Assembly: GCA_963745025.1 (NCBI GenBank)
Contig: CAVUWD010000016.1
Coordinates: 96,001 to 160,000 of the forward strand
Direction: 5' to 3'
Length of the DNA: 64,000 bases
Source: an uncultured delta proteobacterium
GTDB taxonomy: Bacteria > Desulfobacterota > Binatia > JACPRU01
Of this stretch, positions 1 to 12,904 are shown one piece after another. Position 1 is the first letter of the stretch. Every line of letters starts with the position of its first letter. The position numbers and the translations under genes were made by a program. The notes under the pieces were generated by a model. The model was not told where the DNA came from. It saw only the letters and a program-made list of their open reading frames with translations, and did not search any database.

Positions 1-515
1 CCCTCGGCAGCGCGACGGTGCTGCTGATCCTGATCTTCAGCGTGGCGGGCTATCTGCTGCTCGAGCGCCGCTACGGTCTGGCGTCGCTGGTGCTGGTCTC
101 GACGTTCGGTGGCATGCTGATCAGCACCCTGCTCAAGGGCTTTTTCGGCCGCCCGCGGCCGACCGTCGTCCCCCACCTCGTACCTGTCAGCTCGCACAGC
201 TTTCCGAGCGGCCACTCGCTGCTCGCGGCCGTAGTCTATTTGACGCTCGGGGCTTTGCTCGCCCGCGATGCCAACGACCGCGTCACCAAGGTCTACTTGA
301 TCATGCTCTCGACGACGCTCACCGTGTTGATCGGCTTGTCTCGAATGTACGTCGGCGTCCACTATCCAACCGACGTCCTCGGCGGCTGGGTCGCCGGCAC
401 GTTCTGGGCGTTGTGCTGCGGCTTGAGCGCCCGCGAGCTGCAGCGCCGGCGCGTCATCGCGCCGATCGAGAAGCCCGACCCTCAACGGGTGACCCGCTCG
501 AGCTCGGCCACCTGA
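1..515 (+). CDS. PAP2-family membrane phosphatase (5' end probably outside window)
   Basis: KGFFGRPRP, SFPSGHS and SRMYVGVHYPTDVLGG are the three PAP2 motifs; hydrophobic helices. Confidence 0.9.
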   Translation, partial: LGSATVLLILIFSVAGYLLLERRYGLASLVLVSTFGGMLISTLLKGFFGRPRPTVVPHLVPVSSHSFPSGHSLLAAVVYLTLGALLARDANDRVTKVYLIMLSTTLTVLIGLSRMYVGVHYPTDVLGGWVAGTFWALCCGLSARELQRRRVIAPIEKPDPQRVTRSSSAT

Positions 516-2140
516 AGGGTGCCGCCGATCCACGCGAGCACGACCCGGGTGGGCGGGCTCCAGCGGTCTCCCGCGTCGTGGCTGGTCTCGATCTCGACCT
601 GCGTCTCGGCATCGCTCGCCGCCAGCGGCACGAGGGGCTCGCGCGTCACCGTCCACTCGCGGCCAGGCGTGCGGTAACGGTACTCCACGACCGAAGGGTC
701 GACGACGCCGCTCGGCACTACGAGGTCCTCGAATCGCAGCGACGATTCGCCGACGACGAGGTGGTCGATCGGATTGATCCGCAGCCAGTCGAAGTACTCG
801 CGTGCGATGCGCTGGCGGCGCTCGACGAGGATCGCGGTCAGCAGGTCCGCGACCCGCGGATCCGCCCACTCCCCCGTGTGCGCGATGATGCGGACGTCCT
901 GGTCGGTGAGCGAAGCGACGAGCTTCGCACCCCAGAACTTGTCGCGCAGCGTGGCGCGATCGAAAGCCGGATTGATGTAGGTCGGCTTCCAGCCCTCTGG
1001 ATCGAAGGTCGAGCTCTCGAAGTAGCCGAGCGCCGGATGCGTCAGCGGCAGCCGCGCCCAGTCCGGCGTGAGCTGCCACAGCGTGAGCGCCCGGAGCAGT
1101 ACCTTGGGTAGATCGAAGAAATACTCGTGACCGAGCTTTGGGTCCTTGTAGTCGACGTTTCCGGCGCCGAAGCCGCTCGAGAAGTCGAGCACGTAGTGAA
1201 CGATGTGCCCGCCCGAGCCGGGCTCGGTGGAATCCGCAACGAACGTGTCGAGAAAATTGCCCCGCCGGCCGTCGGTGAAGCTGATGAACGCGGCCACCGT
1301 ACGCAAGCCGCGTAGCTCCCGCCTGTCCTCGTGGCGAACCGTGTCGTTGGGGTCGTCGCGACGCACCCCGATGAGCGGCGGCGATCCCTTGGTCGTGCCC
1401 GGGATGAGTCGACTCGCGAGCACACGCATGCGTCCGTCGGGCAAGCGGTACGCCCGCGCGAGCAAGCGACGCAAGCCATCCTCGGTGAGCGGGGTCTTGC
1501 GCCCCCGCTCGTTCTTCGCGGTCGCATCCGAAGCGATCGTCAGCCGCTTTTCGTCGAGCGAGAATAGATAGTACTCGGGAACGTTCCAGCCGAGCGCCCA
1601 GATGATCTTGGAGCACACCAGCTCGGCGCCGGTCGCGAGGTCGGGGTAGTCCGGCGGATCGAACTTCACGACGTAGCGGTCGCCCTTCGCGTCACGCATC
1701 ACGAAGCCCGGCGTCATGCCGAGCGACTTGCCCGACAGCACCACGAGCGGCCCGGTTGCAGACGGCGGGTGCCCGGTGTTCGGCCCCTGCGCGAGCGCTT
1801 GCGCGCTCAGACGCCGGCGCGCGTGACGGTTGGTGAACCACGTGGAGTCCGGAACCTCGTCGAGGGCGTTGGTATTGGCGGCTTCTCTCGGGCCCACCAC
1901 GCGCGCGATCTCGCCGACAGTACGTACCAAGTGGCCGAGATCGAGCACCTTGCCGAGCGGGTAGAGCGCCATGTTGTGCACGCCGTCCCACCAGACGTAG
2001 TCGCCCTCGTGGTCCTCGGCGGGCTCGGCAATCGGTAGGTCGTCGTTATCCTTCCAGAGAACGGGCTCGCGGATCGGCACCGCGGCTGCCGAAGCTACGA
2101 GGATGAAAACGACGAGCGCCGATGTGGGGAGCCGCTTCAC
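482..2140 (-). CDS. Exported protein with atypical (PI3K/HipA/CotH-like) kinase-fold motifs
   Basis: GTG at 2140 overlaps the upstream TGA (GTGA). Signal-peptide-like MKRLPTSALVVFILVASAAA; motifs GMTPGF, YVVKFD (Lys), ATGAE (Glu), DGRRGN (catalytic-loop-like), LDFSSGFG (DFG-like). Confidence 0.7.
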   Translation of the reverse strand: MKRLPTSALVVFILVASAAAVPIREPVLWKDNDDLPIAEPAEDHEGDYVWWDGVHNMALYPLGKVLDLGHLVRTVGEIARVVGPREAANTNALDEVPDSTWFTNRHARRRLSAQALAQGPNTGHPPSATGPLVVLSGKSLGMTPGFVMRDAKGDRYVVKFDPPDYPDLATGAELVCSKIIWALGWNVPEYYLFSLDEKRLTIASDATAKNERGRKTPLTEDGLRRLLARAYRLPDGRMRVLASRLIPGTTKGSPPLIGVRRDDPNDTVRHEDRRELRGLRTVAAFISFTDGRRGNFLDTFVADSTEPGSGGHIVHYVLDFSSGFGAGNVDYKDPKLGHEYFFDLPKVLLRALTLWQLTPDWARLPLTHPALGYFESSTFDPEGWKPTYINPAFDRATLRDKFWGAKLVASLTDQDVRIIAHTGEWADPRVADLLTAILVERRQRIAREYFDWLRINPIDHLVVGESSLRFEDLVVPSGVVDPSVVEYRYRTPGREWTVTREPLVPLAASDAETQVEIETSHDAGDRWSPPTRVVLAWIGGTLQVAELERVTR

Positions 2141-2454
2141 GGCTCGGAACGCTCCCGGCGGACAGGCCAAAGGACGACGTCGGCGATGCGTTCATCCAGC
2201 CGGGCCGCTTCGGCCCAGATGAGCGCTTGCTTGAGCGGCCAGGCTGCAAGCAGCACGATCTGGTTGGGAAGCGCCAGCGCCGCGCGCCACAGCGGCCACT
2301 CCTCGCGGACGAGGCGGCGCTCGCGCACCTCGTTGGGCGGAAGCGGCGGAGCGGCCTGCGCCGCGGAAGCGAGCGCGCCGATCACGAGCAGCATACCGAG
2401 CCCCACCTGCGCGGTAGCGAATCGGCGACGCGTGCGTTCTAGAGCTCTAGCCAC
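2137..2454 (-). CDS. Small exported/membrane-associated helical protein
   Basis: 105 aa ORF packed between the Omp85 gene (5 nt gap) and the kinase-like gene (4 nt overlap); hydrophobic stretch ending AQA, then amphipathic WRAALALPNQIVLLAAWPLKQALIWAE. Confidence 0.65.
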   Translation of the reverse strand: MARALERTRRRFATAQVGLGMLLVIGALASAAQAAPPLPPNEVRERRLVREEWPLWRAALALPNQIVLLAAWPLKQALIWAEAARLDERIADVVLWPVRRERSEP

Positions 2455-2459
2455 GGCGA

Positions 2460-3887
2460 TCAGAAGGTGTGACCGAAGACCACGTAGACGAGGCCCTTCT
2501 CTTCGTCGCTGAACCCGACGTCGATCCGCGCTACCAGCGCCTCGCCGAGAGCGATGCGCGTGCCGCCGCCGTAGCTGTAGCGAAACTCGTTGTCGGTGCG
2601 CGGAATTGTGGCCGGTGGCTCGCCGAGCTCGCGCGCGATGTCCTCTTCGTCCATGAAGACCCGCCCAGCGTCACCGAATGCGACACCGTCGATCTGCACC
2701 TGCCAGATGCCGAAGAAGTTGAAGTCGAAGAGCTTCAGACGGTACTCGCCGTTGATCATCACGTTGCTGGTGCCAAGGAAGCGATCCTGGAAGAATCCGC
2801 GCAGGTCGCGCGAGCCGCCGAGTGAGGCGAGCTCGTAGAATGGCACCTGGCGCGCCTTGGCATCGATGTACTGCCCGCCGATGTGCAGTCCGATCACCTG
2901 ACGGCGCGTGAACAGCGGATAGAGATAGCTTCCCTCGAGGTTGTAGCGCGCGTACTCGAAGTCGTTCCCCAATCCGCGCGGGACCCACGTCGCCTTGGCG
3001 ATGATGCTCCAGCCGCGCGTCGGCCGTGCCAGCTCTTGACGGTCGTTGAAGAGCACGGCGAATGCCAGTGGACTCGACCGCCCGCCGGCGATGCCGGCCA
3101 TATCCGGAAACAGCGCCGGTGTGGAGGGAGTGGAGTCCTCGAGGTGGCCGTGACTGATTTGCACTTCGTTGTACGCGCCCGACGCGACCAAGGTGAAGCG
3201 GCGAGACAAGCGAAGAGCGAGCGCGAGGGTTCCGGTGATGCGTTGGTAGCGATTGGTCGACAGCTCGTCCGGCCCGACGTCGTTGTTGCCGAGACCGAAG
3301 AACTCCTTGGTCGGATCGGTGTAGTACTCGCCTTCAGCGAGCAGCATCAGCCAGTCAGTGCCGAGCGACGGCGAGATCAGGACTGTGTCGAGATGGTACT
3401 GACCCTTTAGGGCGGCGCTTGCGGCGAAGTCGAGCGTCAAGTGAAGCGACGTCATGTCGCGGTTCGTGAACTTGACGCCACCATTCGGGCCCTTTTCCGG
3501 GCTGTAGCCGACCTCGGGAAGAACCGCCCAGTGCCGCGCTGTCGCCGTCTCGCCTCCAGGTTTGGGCGGGGGCTGGGTCTGTTGACCGCCGCCTGCCGGC
3601 TCGCTCGGCGTCTCACCTCCAGGTTGGGGGGGCGGCTGTTTCTCGTCCCCGCGGCCCGCCGGCTCGCTTGTCCCCTCACCTCCTTGCGGTTTCTCTGCTG
3701 TCGCTTCCGCTTCCTTTGCACGCTCCGACTGGATGACCTCGAGGATGCTTCGCTCGCTCGCGATCGGATCCTGCTCGGCCCAGACCGTCATCGCACCGGG
3801 CGCGACCAGCCACGACACGGACAATGCGGCAAAACCGGCTACTGGTGACCGACCCACGCCTCCTCTCCCGTAGCTACGAATTCTCAC
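2460..3887 (-). CDS. Omp85 (BamA/TamA-family) outer-membrane beta-barrel protein, no clear POTRA domains
   Basis: LGGSRDLRGFFQDRF (VRGY/F-type motif), EYR, FGDAGRVF, C-terminal aromatic VYVVFGHTF; Pro/Gly-rich N-terminal linker; start uncertain. Confidence 0.85.
   Translation of the reverse strand: MRIRSYGRGGVGRSPVAGFAALSVSWLVAPGAMTVWAEQDPIASERSILEVIQSERAKEAEATAEKPQGGEGTSEPAGRGDEKQPPPQPGGETPSEPAGGGQQTQPPPKPGGETATARHWAVLPEVGYSPEKGPNGGVKFTNRDMTSLHLTLDFAASAALKGQYHLDTVLISPSLGTDWLMLLAEGEYYTDPTKEFFGLGNNDVGPDELSTNRYQRITGTLALALRLSRRFTLVASGAYNEVQISHGHLEDSTPSTPALFPDMAGIAGGRSSPLAFAVLFNDRQELARPTRGWSIIAKATWVPRGLGNDFEYARYNLEGSYLYPLFTRRQVIGLHIGGQYIDAKARQVPFYELASLGGSRDLRGFFQDRFLGTSNVMINGEYRLKLFDFNFFGIWQVQIDGVAFGDAGRVFMDEEDIARELGEPPATIPRTDNEFRYSYGGGTRIALGEALVARIDVGFSDEEKGLVYVVFGHTF
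3546..3684. repeat. About 2 copies of a 63-bp imperfect tandem repeat (21-aa GGETPSEPAG..QPPPxP unit) in the Omp85 linker
   Basis: cctccagg at 3553 and 3616; gccggctcgct at 3595 and 3658. Confidence 0.8.
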
Positions 3888-4049
3888 TACGCACCTCCGT
3901 CACCCTCACATCCGAGCTCTGTCGACGAAGACGATTCGCCCGGCGCGTGTTCACCGATTGGAAGTCCTATAGTAACAACCGTAGGCACGCCTAGGTTTCG
4001 CTGATCTCTGGGCGAGCAACTCGAACGAGGCTTTGGGGGTTGAGAGCTG

Positions 4050-5501
4050 ATGGCTAGGCAATCTCAGTGGCCACCTGCGGCTTCCACCCGTAGGCTGGAG
4101 GAGCTGCTCTACTCTCCCGCCGATCGGCTGTTGGCGATCTTCAGCGACATCCAGCCGGGTGAGGGCATCGTCGGCTTCGCGATGCTCGGGGCCGTGTTCC
4201 TGCTGCTCACCTCCGTGTATTTCCTGAAACCCGCGCGTGATGGTTTGTTGGCCATCTCGGGTGTGCCGGGCCTGTCCGACATGGAGCTCAAGGCGTACTC
4301 GAGCTTCGGACAGAGCCTTCTCCTGCTCGGTATCGTCCCGCTCTACTCACGCTTCGCAACGGCGCTCGATCGGCGCTCGCTCGCGCGCGGCCTCACGCTG
4401 TTCTTCGTGTCTAACCTCATAGTGTTCTGGCTCCTCCAGCCCGGTTTGGTCGTCGACCACGCGCCGTTTCTCGGCATCGTCTTCTATCTCTGGTTCGGCG
4501 TCTTCAACCTACTCGCCCTCGTGCAGTTCTGGTCGTTCGCAGCCGACTTCTACAGCGAGGAGGGGGGACGGCGGCTATTTCCGGCGATCGCCGTCGGTGC
4601 GACCGCCGGCTCGGCGGCCGGAGCCTGGCTCGCCAAGATGTTGGTCCGCTCGGGCATCTTCTCGACGTACGCGCTGCTTCTCGCCGCCGCCCTGGCGCTG
4701 ATCGGCTCGCTGGCGCTGCTGATGTTCGCCGAGTCGCGCGGCGGGGTGACGAGCGAAACGCCTGCCGCTGCGGCTTTAGAAGCAGTCGAGAGACGTGGCG
4801 CATTTCGCCTGGTGCTGTCGCACCGTTACCTGCTCGCCACGGCCGTCGTCATCCTGATTGCCAACTGGGTGAAGACCAACAGCGACAACCTGCTGTTCGC
4901 GATCGTGCAGGAAGTCGTCGGCCAGGAAGCTAGCGCCCGCGGCCTGTCTGGCTCGGCCGCGCTCGACCGCTTCACGGCCGACCAGACCACGACCTTCTAC
5001 GGTGACCTGTTCTTCTGGGTGAACGTGGCGGCGCTGTTGGTGCAGTCGCTGTTCGCGTCGAGGATCCTGAAGTATGGCGGCTTCGGGGCGCTATTCCTCG
5101 TCCTGCCGACGATCTCGATGATCGCCTACCCACTGCTCGTCGTGGCGCCGGTTCTGGCGCTTTTCCGCATCACCAAGGTCATCGAGGACGCGACCAACTA
5201 CTCGTTGCACAACACCGCCACCCAGGTGCTGTGGCTGCCGACCACGCGGGAGATGAAATACAAGGGCAAGGCCGCAATCGACACCTTCTTCGTACGCCTC
5301 GGCGACGCGCTCGCCGCGCTCACGACGTTCGTTGGCATCCAGCTGCTAACGGTGCCCGCGAAGGAGTTCTTTACGCTGAACACGGTGCTGGCGTTTGCCT
5401 GGCTCGCGGCGGCGCTCGTCGTCGTGCGCGAGCACGACGTGCTCGTCGCCGCCTCGGGGGCGAGCGAGAGGAGCGCCGCAACTTCGGGTGCAATCGCGTG
5501 A
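4050..5501 (+). CDS. NTT/TLC-like nucleotide (ATP/ADP) exchange transporter, MFS fold, paralog 1
   Basis: YFLKPARDGLL, FYLWFGVFN..QFWSFAADFYSEEGGRRLFPAIAVG, KYKGKAAIDTFFVRLGD; about 12 TM segments. Confidence 0.8.
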   Translation: MARQSQWPPAASTRRLEELLYSPADRLLAIFSDIQPGEGIVGFAMLGAVFLLLTSVYFLKPARDGLLAISGVPGLSDMELKAYSSFGQSLLLLGIVPLYSRFATALDRRSLARGLTLFFVSNLIVFWLLQPGLVVDHAPFLGIVFYLWFGVFNLLALVQFWSFAADFYSEEGGRRLFPAIAVGATAGSAAGAWLAKMLVRSGIFSTYALLLAAALALIGSLALLMFAESRGGVTSETPAAAALEAVERRGAFRLVLSHRYLLATAVVILIANWVKTNSDNLLFAIVQEVVGQEASARGLSGSAALDRFTADQTTTFYGDLFFWVNVAALLVQSLFASRILKYGGFGALFLVLPTISMIAYPLLVVAPVLALFRITKVIEDATNYSLHNTATQVLWLPTTREMKYKGKAAIDTFFVRLGDALAALTTFVGIQLLTVPAKEFFTLNTVLAFAWLAAALVVVREHDVLVAASGASERSAATSGAIA

Positions 5502-5570
5502 TTACACCAAGGACCCGCAGACAGAATCGGCCGGGGCTCGCTCTTTGCTCCGAGACATGGACGGCTCGAC

Positions 5571-6986
5571 GTGAGTTCTCATGGGGCTAAGCAGACGCGG
5601 ACAAGAAGTCGCTTGTCCGTGCTCGAGCGCACGCTGAGTGTCTTCACCGAGATCCATCCTGGTGAAGGACCGACCGGCATATACATGCTGATCGGCGTGT
5701 TTTTTGTCCTGGCCGCCTATTACTTCGTCAAGCCGGCGCGCGACGGCCTGCTCGCCATCTCACCGGCCGGCGGGCTGTCCGATACCGAGCTCAAGGCCTA
5801 CTCGAGCTTGGCGCAGAGCGTATGTCTGATCGGCGCGCTGCCGCTCTACGATCGGATCTCGAAGCGGCTGCCGCGGCGCTCTCTCCTGACCGTCGTCACG
5901 CTGTTCTTTGCGGCGAATCTGCTGGTGTTCTGGGCGCTGCAGCCCGGGCTCGTGTTCACCAACGTCACCTACGCGGGGCTCGTCTTCTATCTCTGGGTCG
6001 GCATCTTCAACGTCTTCATCGTCGCTCAGTTCTGGTCCTTCGCCGCCGATCTCTACAGCGAGGAAAGCGGCAAGCGGCTGTTTCCGCTGATCGCCATCGG
6101 TGCCACCGCGGGGGCGGCGAGCGGCGCGTGGATGGCGAAGCGCCTGGTCGGGTCCGTGGGCACCTACGGGTTGCTGCTGGTGGCGGCAGCCGTGCTGGCG
6201 CTCTCGCTGATCGCCATTCGCATGGCGGACTCGCTCGGTGCCGAAGGCCCCCGACCGAGCGAACCAGAAGCTGCGCCCGCACAGCCGCGTGACCCCTCGG
6301 GGGGGCTCCGCCTGGTCTTCCGCCACAAGTACCTCATCGCCACCGCCTTCCTCGTGCTCGTGCTCAACTGGGTGAACACCAACGGCGAGAATTTCCTGTT
6401 CGGCGCGGTCGAGAAGCACATCCACGCCGAGGCCGTGGCGCGCGGCATTCCACAGGGCGAACCGACCGAAACCTTCATTCGTGACCAGACGACTCGCTTC
6501 TACGGCGACATGTTCTTCTGGGTGAACGTGACAGCGCTGTTCCTGCAGACGCTGGTGGCCTCGCGGCTGATCCGCTACGGCGGCTTCGGCGCCATCCTGC
6601 TGGCATTGCCAGCGATCTCGCTCACCGCCTACGTCGTCATGGCGCTGCATCCGACGCTCGGCACGATCCGGCGCATGAAGATCGCCGAGAATGTCACCGA
6701 CTACTCGATCAACAATACGGCCAAGCAAGTGCTCTGGCTGCCGACGACCTTGGACATGAAGTACCGCGCCAAGGCGACCATCGACACGCTGTTCGTCCGG
6801 GCAGGAGACGCGCTGGCCGCTGTCACCGCCTTCGTCGGCGTGAAGCTGCTCGAAGCGCCGCCGCGTGCGCTCTTCGGCTTCAACGCTGTGCTGGTTCTCG
6901 CCTGGCTCGCGCTCGCCGTGGTCATCGTCGCTGAGCACGAGCGTCTGTCGAGCCGTCCGCGCTCGTGCCGCAAGGCTGCCGCGTGA
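5571..6986 (+). CDS. NTT/TLC-like nucleotide exchange transporter, paralog 2
   Basis: YYFVKPARDGLL, QFWSFAADLYSEESGKRLFPLIAIG, DYSINNT..KYRAKATIDTLFVRAGD; collinear with paralog 1. Confidence 0.8.
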   Translation: MSSHGAKQTRTRSRLSVLERTLSVFTEIHPGEGPTGIYMLIGVFFVLAAYYFVKPARDGLLAISPAGGLSDTELKAYSSLAQSVCLIGALPLYDRISKRLPRRSLLTVVTLFFAANLLVFWALQPGLVFTNVTYAGLVFYLWVGIFNVFIVAQFWSFAADLYSEESGKRLFPLIAIGATAGAASGAWMAKRLVGSVGTYGLLLVAAAVLALSLIAIRMADSLGAEGPRPSEPEAAPAQPRDPSGGLRLVFRHKYLIATAFLVLVLNWVNTNGENFLFGAVEKHIHAEAVARGIPQGEPTETFIRDQTTRFYGDMFFWVNVTALFLQTLVASRLIRYGGFGAILLALPAISLTAYVVMALHPTLGTIRRMKIAENVTDYSINNTAKQVLWLPTTLDMKYRAKATIDTLFVRAGDALAAVTAFVGVKLLEAPPRALFGFNAVLVLAWLALAVVIVAEHERLSSRPRSCRKAAA

Positions 6987-8089
6987 CCCGCGTGCGCCTG
7001 CGAGGCCTCACGCTCGTGTCGGTCGTGTTGCTCGCGCTCGTCACGAGGCTCGGCCACGCCGCCGGCTGGGTATCGGACGCGTGGATCACCGTGAAGACCA
7101 AGATCGGGCTCGTCACCACAGAGGAGCTGGCAAGCTCGGAGATCTCCGTCGACACGGTCGACGGACGGGTCACGCTCTGCGGCAAGGTGCCCGGGTCAAC
7201 GCAAAAGCAGAAGGCGGAGGAGGTCGCCAAACTGGTCTCAGGTGTACGCGACGTGCGCAACCTCCTGCAGATCGTGCCGCCCGAGCACGCCGAAGTCGCG
7301 AAGGAGACCGACACCAAGATCCAGCACGACGCCCAGGAAGCGCTCGCCAAAGACCTGGAGCTCGCCGGGTCGGGCATTCGGGTCGCTTCGGTGGCGGCGG
7401 GCGTGCTCGTGCTCGGCGGCACCGCGCGCAGCTCCGTAGAGCTTCTGCGCGCGCTCGACGCCGTCCGGCACGTCCGCGGCGTGCACCGCGTCCAGAGCGC
7501 GGTCGAGATCGCCGCTGGCGATCCGGAGGTCGACATCTGGAGCGGCCACGAGCTTCGCCAGGACGGGCGCGGCGCGCTCGACGCCGCTTCCGATCTCTGG
7601 TTGACGGCCAACACGCGCCTGCGGCTGCTCGCCGACCCCAAGCTTCGCGGCCTCGACATCAGCGTCGACAGCGGGGGTCAAACGGTCACGCTTTTCGGCA
7701 TCGTTCCCTCCACCGCAGCGAAGCGTGCGGCCGAGCAGGACGCGCGGCAAGTGTCCGGCGTGCGCGCGGTGCGTAACGAGCTGCAGGTTGTGCCGGCCTC
7801 GAAGCAGCAGATCGTACGCGCGCGTGACAACGACCTCGAGCAGAAGGTGACGGCGGCGATCTATCGGCGCCCGGAACTGAAGCACGCGGCGATCGGTGTG
7901 GCGGTGCGCAACGGGGTCGTGCGGCTGTCGGGTACGGCGCCGAGCCAACAGCATCGCCTGTTCGCGGCGACCGCGGCGCATGCGGTACCGGGCGTGCGAG
8001 CCGTCGAAGAGAACATCAAGGTGACGACCGTAATTCAGGGAAAGGCCTCTTCGGCCTCGGCGGCACATCCGGCGCCGCCCGAGCACTAG
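6983..8089 (+). CDS. Periplasmic multi-BON domain (OsmY-like) protein, 4 BON repeats
   Basis: Signal peptide; repeated D.WIT.K.K / VDT.DG.VTL.G / VSGVR.VRN.L; GTG overlaps the upstream TGA. Confidence 0.9.
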   Translation: MTRVRLRGLTLVSVVLLALVTRLGHAAGWVSDAWITVKTKIGLVTTEELASSEISVDTVDGRVTLCGKVPGSTQKQKAEEVAKLVSGVRDVRNLLQIVPPEHAEVAKETDTKIQHDAQEALAKDLELAGSGIRVASVAAGVLVLGGTARSSVELLRALDAVRHVRGVHRVQSAVEIAAGDPEVDIWSGHELRQDGRGALDAASDLWLTANTRLRLLADPKLRGLDISVDSGGQTVTLFGIVPSTAAKRAAEQDARQVSGVRAVRNELQVVPASKQQIVRARDNDLEQKVTAAIYRRPELKHAAIGVAVRNGVVRLSGTAPSQQHRLFAATAAHAVPGVRAVEENIKVTTVIQGKASSASAAHPAPPEH

Positions 8090-8271
8090 GGGCCCGCAAC
8101 AGCCACGTCGATGTCGACGCGGAGCCTTCGAAGACAGATATTTTAGAGCCGGCTTCACGCTCCGATTTTATCGGCGCGACCGATCTCGTCTCGAAATGTT
8201 TATATCCATACGTCCGAACGCCACGCGGACGACGCTACTCGTTGCCGGTTTGACCGGCGCACGGAGGACTC

Positions 8272-8436
8272 ATGCTACACTACGCCGTCGTCTTCTTCGT
8301 CATCGCCATCATCGCCGCCGTGCTCGGTTTTGGCGGCGTGGCCGGACTCTCCGCGGAGATCGGGTACACCTTTGCAGTGCTTGCCGTAGTGTTACTCGTC
8401 GTCGCACTTCTGTCCGGCCGGGCGCCGACGCCGTGA
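8272..8436 (+). CDS. DUF1328 (YtjA-like) small membrane protein, 54 aa, absent from ORF track
   Basis: MLHYAVVFFVIAIIAAVLGFGGVAGLSAEIG...; GGAGG RBS upstream. Confidence 0.9.
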   Translation: MLHYAVVFFVIAIIAAVLGFGGVAGLSAEIGYTFAVLAVVLLVVALLSGRAPTP

Positions 8437-8762
8437 ATGTCCCAGCGCCCGAGCCAACCTCGAAAACTCCCCTCGGGGAGGCTCGGGCGCCCTCCCGCGG
8501 CGACGCCCTTCGTGGGGCGTCGCGAACAAGTCCCGTACAGTGTCGCGAGCGAGGCGATGGCAGCAACGATACCTACGCAGCGAGGCACTCGATCGTCGCC
8601 CCGAGTGCTCGCCAGAACCAGCTTGGGCGCGGTGCGACCACCTCGCGGATGGAGGTTTTAATCGGCCAGTGCTGATCTCCAACCCAGGCCTTCGTCCCGC
8701 ATCCTCGCGACGGACGGATCACTCACGACGGCCCGGCGGGATCGCGAAAGGAGTTACGGACG

Positions 8763-8948
8763 ATGAAGGTCACGAAGTCTCTTCCGTTGGTGCTCTCCGG
8801 AGCGCTTCTCGTCTTCGCACTCGGCTGCGAGAAGAAGGAAGGTCCGGCCGAACAGGCGGGCAAGCAGATCGACAAAGGACTGGGACAGATCGGGGACCAA
8901 ATGAAGGATGCCGGCGAGAAGGTGAAGAACAAGGCCGAAGGATACTGA
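8763..8948 (+). CDS. Small lipoprotein (general-stress type)
   Basis: Lipobox ALGC then EKKEGPAEQAGKQID; AGGAG upstream. Confidence 0.85.
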   Translation: MKVTKSLPLVLSGALLVFALGCEKKEGPAEQAGKQIDKGLGQIGDQMKDAGEKVKNKAEGY

Positions 8949-9106
8949 TCGTTACGCCGGATCGGATCGGTGCCGTTTTCCGTGGAGATCGATCGCGGAG
9001 CTCGACGCGTTCGAGCCCGAGTCCTTCACCTTCTCGTACTCGACTGTTCAGAGGTGATCGCTCTGGCGATCACACCCGCTGCGCCGCCCATGGCGGCTCT
9101 CACTGG

Positions 9107-9915
9107 TCAAACCGTCGCAAAGACCCGATAGATCGCCGCCTCATAGGGCTGGAGCTCGAGCGATCGGGTGATGCCACCCGCTTTCCCTCGCCCGCCGAAC
9201 TCCGTCGCCGCCGTCGAAAGCAGCAGGCTCCACCCTCCCTGAGGAACGGGGGTGACGTCGGGGGCGGTCTTGTCCCTTGATACGTTGAACAGCGTGAGCA
9301 ACTCGCGGCCGGGCCGACCGTAGTGTCGAACCGCGATCCAGCCTTCGGGCGAATGCTCTGCCGAGGGCGAGTACTCGACTTGGACTTCCGCGGAATCGGG
9401 GTGAAGCGCCGGCTCCGCACGACGGAGCCCGAGAAGGCTCCGGTAGAGGTGCAGCATCTCCCGATGCGGCGAGCGATCGCCAGTCGATACGCGATCGCAG
9501 AAAAGTCTCACGGCGAGACCGGTCTCGTGTGCGGCATCGACGAGCCGTTTGAGGCCAAGCGGTCCGCCGTAGTTGCTGTGCGGCGCGTACGGATGGACGC
9601 CGTCGTAGCCCCAGTTCCGCCGACCCGGAAACTCGGCGACGGGCATAATCTCGATCGCGCTCACGCCGAGGTCTCGGAGCGCGGGCAGATGCTTGACGAC
9701 GCCGTCGAAGCTGCCAGAGATCGTGAAGGTGCCGACGTGGAGCTCGTAGATCACCAGATCGGACATCGCGATGCCGGGCCAGCGCTGGTCGGACCAGGCG
9801 AAGTCACCCGGCGCCACGATGCGTGACGGGTTATGCACGCCGTACGGCTGAAAGCGGCTTACGGGGTCTGGCCGATTGCGCGAGCCATCGAGGCGGTAAG
9901 AGTAGTGTCTCCGAC
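9107..9915 (-). pseudogene. treZ: Malto-oligosyltrehalose trehalohydrolase remnant (5'-truncated, large internal deletion)
   Basis: PDPVSRFQPYGVH, IYELHVGTFT, RNWGYDGV..AAHETGLAV joined near 9510 directly to C-terminal LYRSLLGLRRAEPAL; the GH13 catalytic core is missing. Confidence 0.85.
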
Positions 9916-10081
9916 CCGCTCGCGGAGTGAAACCGCAGTGCAGAAAAGCTACGACGAGACTTCTCGCACGTACGTTGAAACGAGGTGAACCAAATCGGGT
10001 TTCGCTGTCTCGAGGCTCACGCTGTAAGAACGAATGAGCGCCTCGCCCCGGAGGGCGCGAGGCGCCAACCAAGGCCATCGG

Positions 10082-12904
10082 ATGGAGTGTCGAATTCCTG
10101 CGAGCACGTATCGCGTGCAGCTCCACGCGGGCTTCACGTTTGCGGATCTCCGCGGAGTGCTCCCGTACCTCGCGCGACTCGGGGTGACCGATTGCTATCT
10201 CTCTCCGTGCTTGCAGGCGCGGCCCGGCAGCCAGCATGGCTACGACATCTGCGACCACACGCGGCTGAACGTGCAGCTCGGCGGCGAGCCGGAGTTCGAC
10301 GCGCTCGCGGCCGAAGCCCGACGGTTAGGGATGGGGCTCGTGGTCGACTTCGTGCCCAACCACATGGGCATCGATCCGAAAACCAATCGCTGGTGGTGGA
10401 ACGTGCTCGAAGACGGCCCGTGCTCGCGGTACGCCCGCTTCTTCGACATCGACTGGCATCCGATCAAGTCGGAGCTCGAGGGGAAGCTGCTGCTCGCGAT
10501 CCTTGGCCGGCCTTACGGGGAGGCGCTCGAGCGCGGAGAGCTCGTACTCGCAGTTGACGAGGGCCGGCTCGTACTACGCTATTTCGACCACGAGCTCCCG
10601 ATCGATCCGCGGCTCGCTCCACGGGTGCTCGAGCGGAACGTCGAAGCGCTTCGCGCGGAGCTCGGCGACGAGGACTCGGCCCTCCGCGAGTTTCTGAGCA
10701 TCGCGGCGGCGCTCCGCAACCTTCCGACCGAGCCCGAACCCGATCGCATCACCGAGCGCGAGCGCGAGAAGGAATTCGCCCGTGAGCGCCTGGCGCGGTT
10801 GCTCGAGCGCTCGCCACCGATCGCCCGCCACGTGGACGACGCGATCGCCGGCGTCAATGGCAAGCCCGAGTTGCCCGCGAGCTTCGACGATCTCCACGAT
10901 CTGCTCGAAGGCCAATCGTATCGCCTCGCCTACTGGCGAGCGGCGTCGCACGAGATCAACTACCGGCGCTTCTTCGACGTGAACGATCTCGCTGCTCTCC
11001 GCATCGAGGATCCCGCCGTGTTCGAGGCGACGCACGCGCGCATGGTGCGCCTGGTACGAGAGGAGAAGATCACCGGACTTCGGATCGATCACATCGACGG
11101 CCTGTTCGATCCAAGCGGCTACCTCTCGCGCCTGCACGAGGCGACCGGTCCGTGCTACGTCGTCGTCGAGAAGATCCTGACGGGCAACGAGACCTTGCGC
11201 GAGGGGTGGTTGACGCACGGTACGACGGGCTATGAGTTCCTGAACGATCTGAACGGCATCTTCGTCGACTCGCGGGGCGAGCGGCCGCTGCGCCGCTTCT
11301 ACGAGCGCTTCACTAAACGCACGGCGCCGTTCCCCATCCTCACCTACGTCGGCAAGAAGCTCATCGTCGAGACCTCGCTCGCGAGCGAGCTCGCGATGCT
11401 CGCGGATGCGCTGAACCGCATCTCCGAACAAGACCGCCGCTCTCGTGACTTCACGCTGCAGAGCCTTCGAGACGTGCTGATCGAGGTGACGGCGACCTTT
11501 CCCGTCTATCGCACGTACGTCGACCGGAGTGGAGCCCGCGACTTCGATCTCCGTGCGATCGACAGCGCGATCTTGCGCGCGAGGCGGCGAAATCCGGCGA
11601 TGGAGAAGTCGATCTTCGCGTTCGTGCGCAAGGTGCTGCTCGCCGAAGCCGACGGATTCCCTGAGGCCGAGTACTTCCGCCGCCTCGAGTTCGCGATGAA
11701 GTTTCAGCAGTACAGCGGCCCGGTGCAGGCCAAAGGCCTGGAGGACACTGCCTTCTATCGCTACAACCTGCTCGTCTCGTTGAACGAGGTGGGGGGTGAT
11801 CCGCAGCGCTTCGGACGGTCGGTCGCCAACTTCCACGGCGCGAACCGATACCGGCGCGAGCACTGGCCTGCGACGATGCTCGCCACCTCGACGCACGACA
11901 CCAAGCGGAGTGAGGATGTTCGCGCGCGAGTCAACGTGCTCTCGGAGCTGCCCGACGAATGGTCGCGGGTGGTGTCGCGCTGCAGCCGATGGAATGCGCG
12001 CAACCGTACGGCGACCGAGGGCGACAAGGCTCCCGACCGCAACGACGAGCTGCTCTTCTATCAGTCGCTCGTCGGCGTCTGGCCCTTCGGCGCGACACGG
12101 GCCGACGCGACGCTCGTCGAGCGCTTGGTCCGGTGCATGGGCAAGTCGGCAAAGGAAGCGAAGCTCCACACGAGTTGGATCAATGACGACCCGGCGTACG
12201 AGGGGGCGCTGAAGAGCTTCGTCGAGAAGACGTTGACCGGCGAGCGGACGGCGAAGTTCTTCGAGTCGTTCCTGCCGTTCCAGCAGCGAGTGACGAGACT
12301 CGGCATGGTAAACTCACTCGCCCAGGTGCTGCTCAAGATCGTCTCGCCCGGCGTCGCAGACTTCTATCAGGGGAACGAGGTCTGGGATTTGAGCCTCGTC
12401 GATCCCGACAACCGTCGGCCGGTCGACTACACATCGCAAAGGCACCTGCTCGACGAGATGGAGTCCGCACTCGTGGACCCGGCGGCGCGGGGGGCTGCGG
12501 CGGCGCGCTTGCTCGAGCAGTGGACGGACGGCGCGATCAAGCTCTACGTGACCACGCTCGGCTTGCGCCTGCGACGCGAGCACCCGAAGCTCTTCCTGGA
12601 AGGAGAGTACGTGCCGGTGCCGGCGTCGGGCGCGCGCTCTGAACACGTGGTCGCGATCGAGCGGAGTTTCGAGGACCACGCCGTCGTTGCGATCGCGCCG
12701 CGGCTTTCGAGCAGCCTGACTTCGACCGAGCACCCGTGGCCGCTCGGCGAGCCGAGCTGGGGCGATACCACGGTCGCGCTCTCCGACCTCGCCGGCAGAG
12801 ATCTCCTGAACATCTTCACCGGCAATCGATTCCGCGCGGCCGAATCGCTGCTCGTTGCCGAGCTCTTGCAGGCCTTTCCTGTCGCTCTCATCGTCCCGGT
12901 CTGA
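10082..12904 (+). CDS. treY: Malto-oligosyltrehalose synthase
   Basis: IPASTYRVQL, GSQHGYD, DFVPNHMG, INYRRFFDVNDL, GLRIDHIDGL, THDTKRSEDVRAR, SLVDPDNRRPVDY. Confidence 0.95.
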   Translation: MECRIPASTYRVQLHAGFTFADLRGVLPYLARLGVTDCYLSPCLQARPGSQHGYDICDHTRLNVQLGGEPEFDALAAEARRLGMGLVVDFVPNHMGIDPKTNRWWWNVLEDGPCSRYARFFDIDWHPIKSELEGKLLLAILGRPYGEALERGELVLAVDEGRLVLRYFDHELPIDPRLAPRVLERNVEALRAELGDEDSALREFLSIAAALRNLPTEPEPDRITEREREKEFARERLARLLERSPPIARHVDDAIAGVNGKPELPASFDDLHDLLEGQSYRLAYWRAASHEINYRRFFDVNDLAALRIEDPAVFEATHARMVRLVREEKITGLRIDHIDGLFDPSGYLSRLHEATGPCYVVVEKILTGNETLREGWLTHGTTGYEFLNDLNGIFVDSRGERPLRRFYERFTKRTAPFPILTYVGKKLIVETSLASELAMLADALNRISEQDRRSRDFTLQSLRDVLIEVTATFPVYRTYVDRSGARDFDLRAIDSAILRARRRNPAMEKSIFAFVRKVLLAEADGFPEAEYFRRLEFAMKFQQYSGPVQAKGLEDTAFYRYNLLVSLNEVGGDPQRFGRSVANFHGANRYRREHWPATMLATSTHDTKRSEDVRARVNVLSELPDEWSRVVSRCSRWNARNRTATEGDKAPDRNDELLFYQSLVGVWPFGATRADATLVERLVRCMGKSAKEAKLHTSWINDDPAYEGALKSFVEKTLTGERTAKFFESFLPFQQRVTRLGMVNSLAQVLLKIVSPGVADFYQGNEVWDLSLVDPDNRRPVDYTSQRHLLDEMESALVDPAARGAAAARLLEQWTDGAIKLYVTTLGLRLRREHPKLFLEGEYVPVPASGARSEHVVAIERSFEDHAVVAIAPRLSSSLTSTEHPWPLGEPSWGDTTVALSDLAGRDLLNIFTGNRFRAAESLLVAELLQAFPVALIVPV

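Follow-up and report, generated by a model that had tools for sequence, protein, structure and literature searches.

The kinases Fam20C and Fam20B of the eukaryotic secretory pathway combine a signal peptide, a kinase fold and a site of action outside the cytosol, and they depend on a membrane nucleotide exchanger, which we take to be AXER/SLC35B1, the ATP/ADP exchanger of the endoplasmic reticulum and Golgi. ATP supply to an extracytoplasmic kinase is not known for any bacterium. Here we describe a gene cluster from an uncultured delta proteobacterium (GTDB lineage Bacteria; Desulfobacterota; Binatia; JACPRU01), located within a window of 64,000 nt (GenBank GCA_963745025.1, contig CAVUWD010000016.1, positions 96,001-160,000 of the forward strand). 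The cluster encodes an apparently exported kinase-like protein of 552 amino acids, here termed K552, together with an Omp85-family outer-membrane barrel and two tandem NTT/TLC carriers, TLC1 and TLC2. K552 would share the three features of the Fam20 kinases named above, and by analogy we propose that it, too, may depend on a nucleotide exchanger. The differences from the Fam20 system lie in the carriers, which are of an unrelated family (NTT/MFS), in the compartment, a bacterial one enclosed by an outer membrane with porins, in the dedicated Omp85 partner of K552, and in the absence of detectable sequence similarity. As an exported kinase-fold protein, a barrel and relatives of ATP/ADP exchangers cluster across many Gram-negative phyla, these bacteria may likewise feed ATP to an extracytoplasmic kinase.

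The best structural likeness to K552 is found in CtkA of Helicobacter pylori, CotH of Bacillus and HipA/HipT, which likewise have a D-x4-N catalytic loop; the first two act outside the cytoplasm. Unlike these proteins, which have no Omp85 or NTT partner, K552 has two additional parts, a conserved N-terminal region and an FN3-like domain at the C-terminus, and it lies outside a toxin-antitoxin context. The window carriers share a full-length profile match and signature motifs with the NTT/TLC proteins of Chlamydia, Rickettsia and plastids, but form separate clades with ~20-25% identity and reside in free-living hosts. The barrel is 16-stranded, as in TamA and BamA, but lacks POTRA domains. PlpD-type (type Vd) enzyme-Omp85 fusions follow the same theme of enzyme plus barrel, whereas K552 is a separate polypeptide; a short helical N-terminal module distinguishes the K552-linked barrels from both groups. 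NTT-HEAT(-cNBD) fusions of free-living bacteria have been described without a function (Major, Embley & Williams 2017, PMC5381601), and the searched portion of that text holds no mention of Omp85, a kinase or the outer membrane. The same proteins occur at 28 of 80 K552 loci (the best 80 of 533 relatives that a pattern scan returned when each species was represented by one genome), with a gene for a cyclic-nucleotide (cNMP)-binding protein after the carrier; the carriers of the window genome, in contrast, are two short forms only. No described system of this composition was found in the open-access papers and bioRxiv preprints searched, in line with the original prediction, made from the sequence of the window, which knew of no characterised counterpart.

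K552 is encoded on the minus strand (482-2140) from a GTG start codon, and a longer frame opening with TTG extends to 2170. Neither K552 nor the 105-amino-acid protein encoded next to it matches a Pfam family at cut-off, and an NCBIfam scan of the cluster proteins gave nothing over cut-off. A word-indexed search returned 858 proteins at E<=1e-3, every one unnamed or 'hypothetical' and the closest from Candidatus Binatia; an exhaustive search returned 2567 clusters (50% identity) at E<=1e-3, and 665 at E<=1e-30. K552 founds a large, unnamed kinase-like family, whose cultured hosts include the nitrifier Nitrospira moscoviensis and Fodinibius roseus DSM 21986. Sequence comparison with solved structures yielded nothing usable (best E 0.65 for the single sequence and 0.15 for the profile).

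The AlphaFold2 model of K552, built from a 44-sequence alignment (A1), reaches a mean predicted local distance difference test score (pLDDT) of 89.3 and a predicted template modelling score of 0.90. It comprises a predicted kinase-like domain at residues ~98-450, followed by a C-terminal FN3/Ig-like sandwich at ~451-540 (Z 7-8). A kinase fold had been set beforehand as a test of the proposal, which withstands it. The leading Foldseek matches are all kinases or kinase-like proteins, headed by actin-fragmin kinase (8e-4) and followed by CtkA, HipT, Rio2, Fam20 and PI4KIIα. In VIA-align, the H. pylori CtkA structure superimposes on model residues 124-461 with Z 14.5 (232 residues, root-mean-square deviation 4.0), ahead of Fam20 (Z 12-13), CotH (12.2), PI4KIIα (11.8), actin-fragmin kinase (11.7), HipT and MavQ (10-11) and HipA (9-10). 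Weaker traces of the same relationship are seen in Pfam, where HipA_C (PF07804) and HipA_2 (PF20613) score 13.8 and 14.2 bits on K552, below their cut-offs of 30.5 and 27; among the 44 relatives, HipA_C matches 17 (best E 2.8e-6) and HipA_2 matches 16, again below cut-off. The ESM Atlas returns unnamed clusters only, and the nearest named entries, Fam20C (0.81) and HipA_2 (0.80), serve as leads only.

The motifs read from the sequence in the original prediction, namely Lys, Glu, DxRxxN and DF in kinase order, correspond to K159, E173, D290-G-R-R-G-N295 and D319-F320. Across 232 diverse members of the family, K159 is retained in 223, E or D at position 173 in 219, D290 in 226, N295 in 224 and D319 in 227. 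In the model, K159 lies in the strand 155-160, D290-x4-N295 precedes the strands 296-302 and 311-317, and D319-F follows them; catalytic roles were assigned by position relative to these strands and not by residue-level superposition. Judged by the bilobal fold of the model and the presence of Lys, D-x4-N and Asp, K552 belongs to the protein-kinase-like (PKL) superfamily, and it is probably an active enzyme.

The N-terminus of K552 is signal-like (MKRLPTSALVVFILVASAAA/VP). A hydrophobic stretch falls within the first 45 residues in all 44 aligned relatives, preceded by a short and often basic N-terminus, and several relatives, including those from Nitrospira and a gammaproteobacterium, carry a lipobox-like L-x-G/A-C. 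Read by this heuristic, K552 would be exported, and a signal-peptide-like or lipoprotein-like N-terminus, as anticipated for the window protein, would be general in the family.

The barrel gene lies on the minus strand at 2460-3887, separated by 5 nt from the open reading frame (ORF) of the 105-amino-acid exported helical protein (2137-2454, minus strand), which in turn shares 4 nt with the start of K552. The barrel matches Pfam Omp85 at 1.6e-17 (64.5 bits, cut-off 24). Its AlphaFold2 model has an overall pLDDT of 74, rising to 80-95 in most of the 10-residue blocks that make up the barrel, and shows 16 strands at residues ~120-471, while residues 1-116 are disordered or form a single helix. 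Foldseek places it closest to TamA (4c00, 1e-14) and next to BamA barrels, with matches from 1e-14 to 1e-11. No Pfam POTRA domain was found in any of the seven barrels tested, that is, in the window barrel and in six of six further K552-linked Omp85 proteins, and neither subfamily model reaches its cut-off on the window protein (NF047779, 129 bits against 200; TIGR03303, 41.6 bits against 297). The window barrel is hence a member of the Omp85 superfamily outside the POTRA-bearing BamA/TamA/TpsB group. As a whole, the K552-linked barrels constitute a new class of POTRA-less Omp85 proteins with a dedicated soluble partner.

Comparison of the 105-amino-acid protein with K552 homologs by phmmer matched the N-termini of nine of them (E 2.6e-6 to 5.6e-16). 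Of the 875 ORFs in the six-frame translation of the window, a hidden Markov model (HMM) built from the conserved segment that precedes the barrel in the Omp85 proteins of other lineages matches only one, the 105-amino-acid ORF (E 2.6e-5). The two share the pattern L-x2-P-x9-P-x8-E-x6-R. By these similarities, the 105-amino-acid protein is identified as a detached copy of a pre-barrel module that is otherwise carried on Omp85. The module thus resides on Omp85 in most lineages, is free in the window and is fused to K552 in nine relatives, a pattern expected of proteins that work in contact. In the columns of the alignment that hold this module in other lineages, the window Omp85 carries a Pro/Gly/Glu-rich linker. 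Residues ~65-116 (~3540-3695, minus strand) form a repeated low-complexity stretch rich in Pro, Gly, Glu, Ser and Thr (GGE-T-SEPAGGG...QPPP); that this stretch might be a substrate of the kinase is pure speculation.

TLC1 (4050-5501, plus strand) and its tandem paralog TLC2 (5571-6986, plus strand) are short MFS carriers of the NTT/TLC family (AAA, TC 2.A.12-type). Pfam TLC scores 28.6 bits on TLC1 and 24.4 bits on TLC2 against a cut-off of 21, covering only the C-terminal ~80 residues. The relationship extends further in a profile of 32 short carriers of K552-linked or window type (A3), which aligns with solved NTT structures over the full length (9j3n, 8.2e-33, profile positions 7-446; 9j3j, 1.5e-28) and has the signature motifs FW.FAN...KR..L.G.GA and Y.....T.......P....K.K.KAAID in common with them. 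Homologs are named 'ATP:ADP antiporter, AAA family' in their source records. By sequence, TLC1 and TLC2 are true NTT relatives along their full length, which substantiates the NTT/TLC-like identity first proposed for them. A quick tree separates three carrier clades, namely NTT-HEAT, window-type short and a second short clade, and unites TLC1 and TLC2 as sisters with 53% identity. Orthologs of both recur on contigs of close relatives, and the search of the 5.65-Mb window genome (92.65% complete) revealed no further TLC-family genes and no NTT-HEAT form. The pair is accordingly classed, from the tree and the sequences, as a lineage-specific tandem duplication. The suggestion that TLC1 and TLC2 act as a heterodimer finds no support; most other clusters contain one short NTT and/or one NTT-HEAT form.

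The association of these genes is conserved well beyond the window. By their record titles, the best 80 K552 loci come from Acidobacteriota (20), Latescibacterota (17), Balneolaceae (11), Nitrospiraceae (6, including Nitrospira moscoviensis), Gemmatimonadota (5), Bacteroidota (4) and others, amounting to at least 13 diderm lineages in all. HMMs derived from these loci place an Omp85 gene immediately upstream of K552, in the same orientation, in 65 of the 70 loci with at least 1.5 kb of upstream sequence, and TLC immediately downstream of K552 in 26 of 73. Where at least 6 kb is available on both sides, TLC is present in 31 of 45 loci, and Omp85 and TLC together in 30. The usual order is Omp85, K552, a short NTT (~445 amino acids), an NTT-HEAT protein (~900-1050 amino acids) and a cNMP-binding protein of ~145 amino acids, the last being fused to the carrier in one locus (L016). 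In a sample of 151 genomes from the phylum of the window, K552 occurs in 3 and TLC in 15; TLC lies within ~2 kb of K552 in all 3. Related genomes are not independent observations. In five of five K552 genomes without a flanking TLC gene, TLC is encoded elsewhere, in N. moscoviensis ~9 kb upstream, while TLC is found in none of 14 control genomes. The linkage of K552, TLC and Omp85 is far above chance, and the expectation that NTT genes would accompany K552 in other genomes was borne out. The adjacency of K552 and Omp85, taken together with the mobile N-terminal module, lends indirect, sequence-based support to a model in which K552 docks on, or is exported through, the barrel.

A second Omp85 of 682 amino acids is encoded in the genome of the window itself (locus L082, contig C19, 370000-382515; ORFs 5413-7461 and 7775-9037). 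The ORF that follows it, near the contig end, begins with 54 residues of the K552 N-terminal type and continues into a CDP-alcohol phosphatidyltransferase fragment. The arrangement resembles a second copy that has been rearranged or chimerically assembled; contamination of this metagenome-assembled genome is 7.6%.

Further genes recur around K552. PAP2 phosphatases are encoded in 13 and metallophosphoesterases in 14 of the 80 loci, in disjoint sets that together make up 27 of 80, and these partner phosphatases have lipobox or signal N-termini. Lipoprotein-type N-termini are found in the metallophosphoesterases and in a Nitrospira-specific protein of the K552 loci. Histidine kinases of the 7TMR-DISM type are encoded in 14 loci. 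In two loci, patatin-Omp85 (PlpD-like) genes neighbor the K552 cluster (L031:635-2896 on the minus strand; L039:9613-11934). L039 also encodes a 905-amino-acid protein (L039:11984-14701) that clusters with metallophosphoesterases and has an Omp85 match of 22.8 bits, below the cut-off of 24.

In the reciprocal direction, we examined 80 metagenome loci centred on relatives of the short carriers, of which 16 contain Omp85. In 11 of the 80, other than those with K552, the neighbour of the carrier is a PPDK_N (ATP-grasp) protein of ~970-1000 amino acids, in two cases with a PEP-utilizers domain as well (L086-L089, L091, L092, L098, L114, L125, L142, L150), and short NTT and NTT-HEAT genes adjoin it. 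A β-lactamase-2-like protein, in some cases with a peptidoglycan-binding domain, occurs in 15 short-carrier loci. Neither protein was found in the 80 K552 loci. All eight PPDK_N proteins whose start lies on the contig have a signal-like N-terminus. This set may represent a second periplasmic ATP-using module, and it did not occur together with K552 in any of these loci. The same carrier clade is thus flanked by apparently exported proteins of two unrelated ATP-binding folds, which we consider the strongest indirect argument that the carriers meet a demand for nucleotides outside the cytoplasm. In three related loci of the reciprocal set, the short carrier and Omp85 share one stop-free frame (L110:1508-4264, L118:625-3117, L124:3834-6269), with a signal-like Omp85 segment after the last helix of the carrier; the two could be translationally fused or very tightly coupled.

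We tentatively favor, as somewhat short of an even chance, a conserved envelope phosphotransfer module in which an exported kinase is supplied with ATP by NTT-type carriers. K552 would be a catalytically competent PKL-fold enzyme acting in the periplasm or at the outer membrane, partnered with its dedicated POTRA-less barrel, and the 105-amino-acid module would bridge or plug the two. In the inner membrane, the carriers would move ATP out and ADP back in. Exported phosphatases (PAP2 in the window, metallophosphoesterase lipoproteins elsewhere) might undo the reaction or clear up after it. We observe the fold with its conserved catalytic residues, N-termini of export type, the family to which each part belongs and the linkage across phyla; we infer the kinase activity, an envelope protein or lipid as substrate, the docking on the barrel and, above all, the molecule transported together with its direction. 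A broader postulate, that many diderm phyla energise their periplasm, with short NTTs exporting ATP in exchange for ADP and feeding at least two unrelated exported ATP-binding folds (K552 with its barrel and, in other loci, a PPDK_N-type phosphotransferase with a β-lactamase-like partner), we regard as rather unlikely.

Several observations weigh against the envelope phosphotransfer module. Seven residues of K552 beyond the canonical kinase kit (D263, D266, H270, R274, R277, D400 and W403) are invariant in 232 of 232 members; being more invariant than the kit itself, they suggest that the chemistry may not be plain phosphotransfer. The export call for the family is made by a hydrophobicity heuristic. 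The carriers are remote from characterised NTTs: a window carrier taken as a single sequence matches 9j3n just at E 0.012, and TIGR00769 ('NTP/NDP exchange transporter') scores 20.5 bits on TLC1 against a cut-off of 387.2 and does not match TLC2. That they carry ATP, and carry it outward, is a postulate. PamNTT1, a characterised NTT, is reported to import ATP preferentially and to work in a single orientation. The linkage, furthermore, is incomplete and asymmetric. In 14 of the 45 fully flanked K552 loci, no TLC lies within 6-8 kb, and 12 of the 15 TLC genomes of the phylum sample have no K552. K552 appears in only 15 of the 80 short-carrier loci, and in 10 of the 37 that span at least 9 kb, which indicates that the carriers are not dedicated to K552. 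Finally, periplasmic ATP could leak out through porins.

Among the alternatives, salvage of nucleotides or organophosphates fares best, although we consider it improbable. Here the NTTs would import external nucleotides, exported phosphatases would process phosphoesters, K552 would be a periplasmic protein that binds or processes nucleotides, and Omp85 would function in uptake or anchoring. Import is the activity reported for characterised NTTs, and the phosphatase genes at 27 of 80 K552 loci fit such a role, as do the PHO4 phosphate transporter and class B acid phosphatase genes that adjoin some short TLC genes (L153, L147). The near-invariant catalytic Asp/Asn/Asp of K552, however, would be superfluous in a binding protein, and a kinase would have no clear role where ATP is absent. 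Import also leaves the second exported ATP-binding enzyme, the PPDK_N protein beside the same carriers, unexplained. To our knowledge, Omp85 barrels do not act as solute channels.

A two-partner-like route of display or secretion, in which Omp85 exports K552 or anchors it at the surface to act on external targets while the linkage to NTT is regulatory or metabolic, appears less probable still. The closest fold is that of a secreted kinase, CtkA, and Omp85 neighbors K552 (65 of 70) more tightly than TLC does (26 of 73). A small module moves between barrel and K552, and the PlpD-like genes and the sub-cut-off Omp85 match of the 905-amino-acid L039 protein lie in the same neighborhoods. Two-partner secretion (TPS) itself is poorly matched, since none of the seven barrels carries POTRA and K552 has no TPS-type secretion domain in the Pfam scan. 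The family, moreover, is spread over free-living soil, sediment and nitrifier lineages, and the strong co-occurrence with TLC would be unexplained.

A reverse energy harvest, in which exported ADP is re-phosphorylated in the periplasm by K552 or the PPDK_N enzymes from an external high-energy phosphoryl donor and the ATP is then imported, would suit the ATP-in/ADP-out preference reported for PamNTT1, the binding of adenine nucleotides expected by family for both exported enzyme types and the reversibility of PPDK-type enzymes, but we hold it to be very improbable, as no donor is known, protein-kinase-like enzymes run poorly in reverse on phosphoesters and the co-encoded phosphatases would waste the donor. 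The remaining probability falls to an explanation of some other kind than those considered here.

The periplasm is taught as an ATP-free compartment, and envelope processes are for that reason assumed to draw on the inner membrane for energy, as in TonB, Lpt, Lol and Bam-type systems. With an apparently active, exported kinase conserved alongside relatives of ATP/ADP exchangers, the opposite idea of an energised periplasm becomes directly testable. Under the broader postulate given above, the notion of an ATP-free periplasm would be wrong for these organisms and the NTTs of free-living bacteria would be exporters. A supply of ATP to K552 by these carriers would also provide a first function for widespread NTT genes that have been without an explanation since their description (PMC5381601). 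N. moscoviensis and F. roseus DSM 21986 offer family members in organisms where genetics or biochemistry is feasible.

All seven genes of the cluster, in a region of ~65% G+C, lie at the coordinates called in the original prediction. The Omp85 and TLC operons diverge from an intergenic region of 162 bp (3888-4049), anticipated as ~160 bp, in which the promoter scan gave no sigma-70-like match; across positions 1-9500, promoter and terminator sites were no more numerous than in shuffled sequences. At the other end of the cluster, a PAP2-family phosphatase gene (3-515, plus strand; its true 5' end possibly before the window start) converges on K552 with a tail-to-tail 3' overlap of 34 nt. It matches Pfam PAP2 at 3.7e-25 (88.6 bits, cut-off 27.2), and the convergent arrangement proposed for it recurs in two further loci (L001 and L005).

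Downstream of the carriers, an exported OsmY-like protein with four BON stretches is encoded at 6965-8089 on the plus strand (Pfam BON 4.9e-55). The OsmY equivalog of NCBIfam scores 110.7 bits on it, under the cut-off of 174, while the BON domains themselves are present. The 5' end of the gene overlaps the end of TLC2, and a GTG at 6983 overlaps the TLC2 stop codon. The gene is translationally coupled to TLC2, as proposed. As a conserved part of the system, however, the BON gene was rejected, having no tblastn match in any of the 80 K552 loci; it is specific to the version of the cluster found in this lineage. Two overlapping plus-strand ORFs without a Pfam match (8196-8675 and 8540-9280) lie 3' of the BON gene. 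Beyond them, two overlapping ORFs give alpha-amylase-family matches on both strands, with DUF3459 and Alpha-amylase on the minus strand (9107-10258) and Alpha-amylase on the plus strand (10034-12904).

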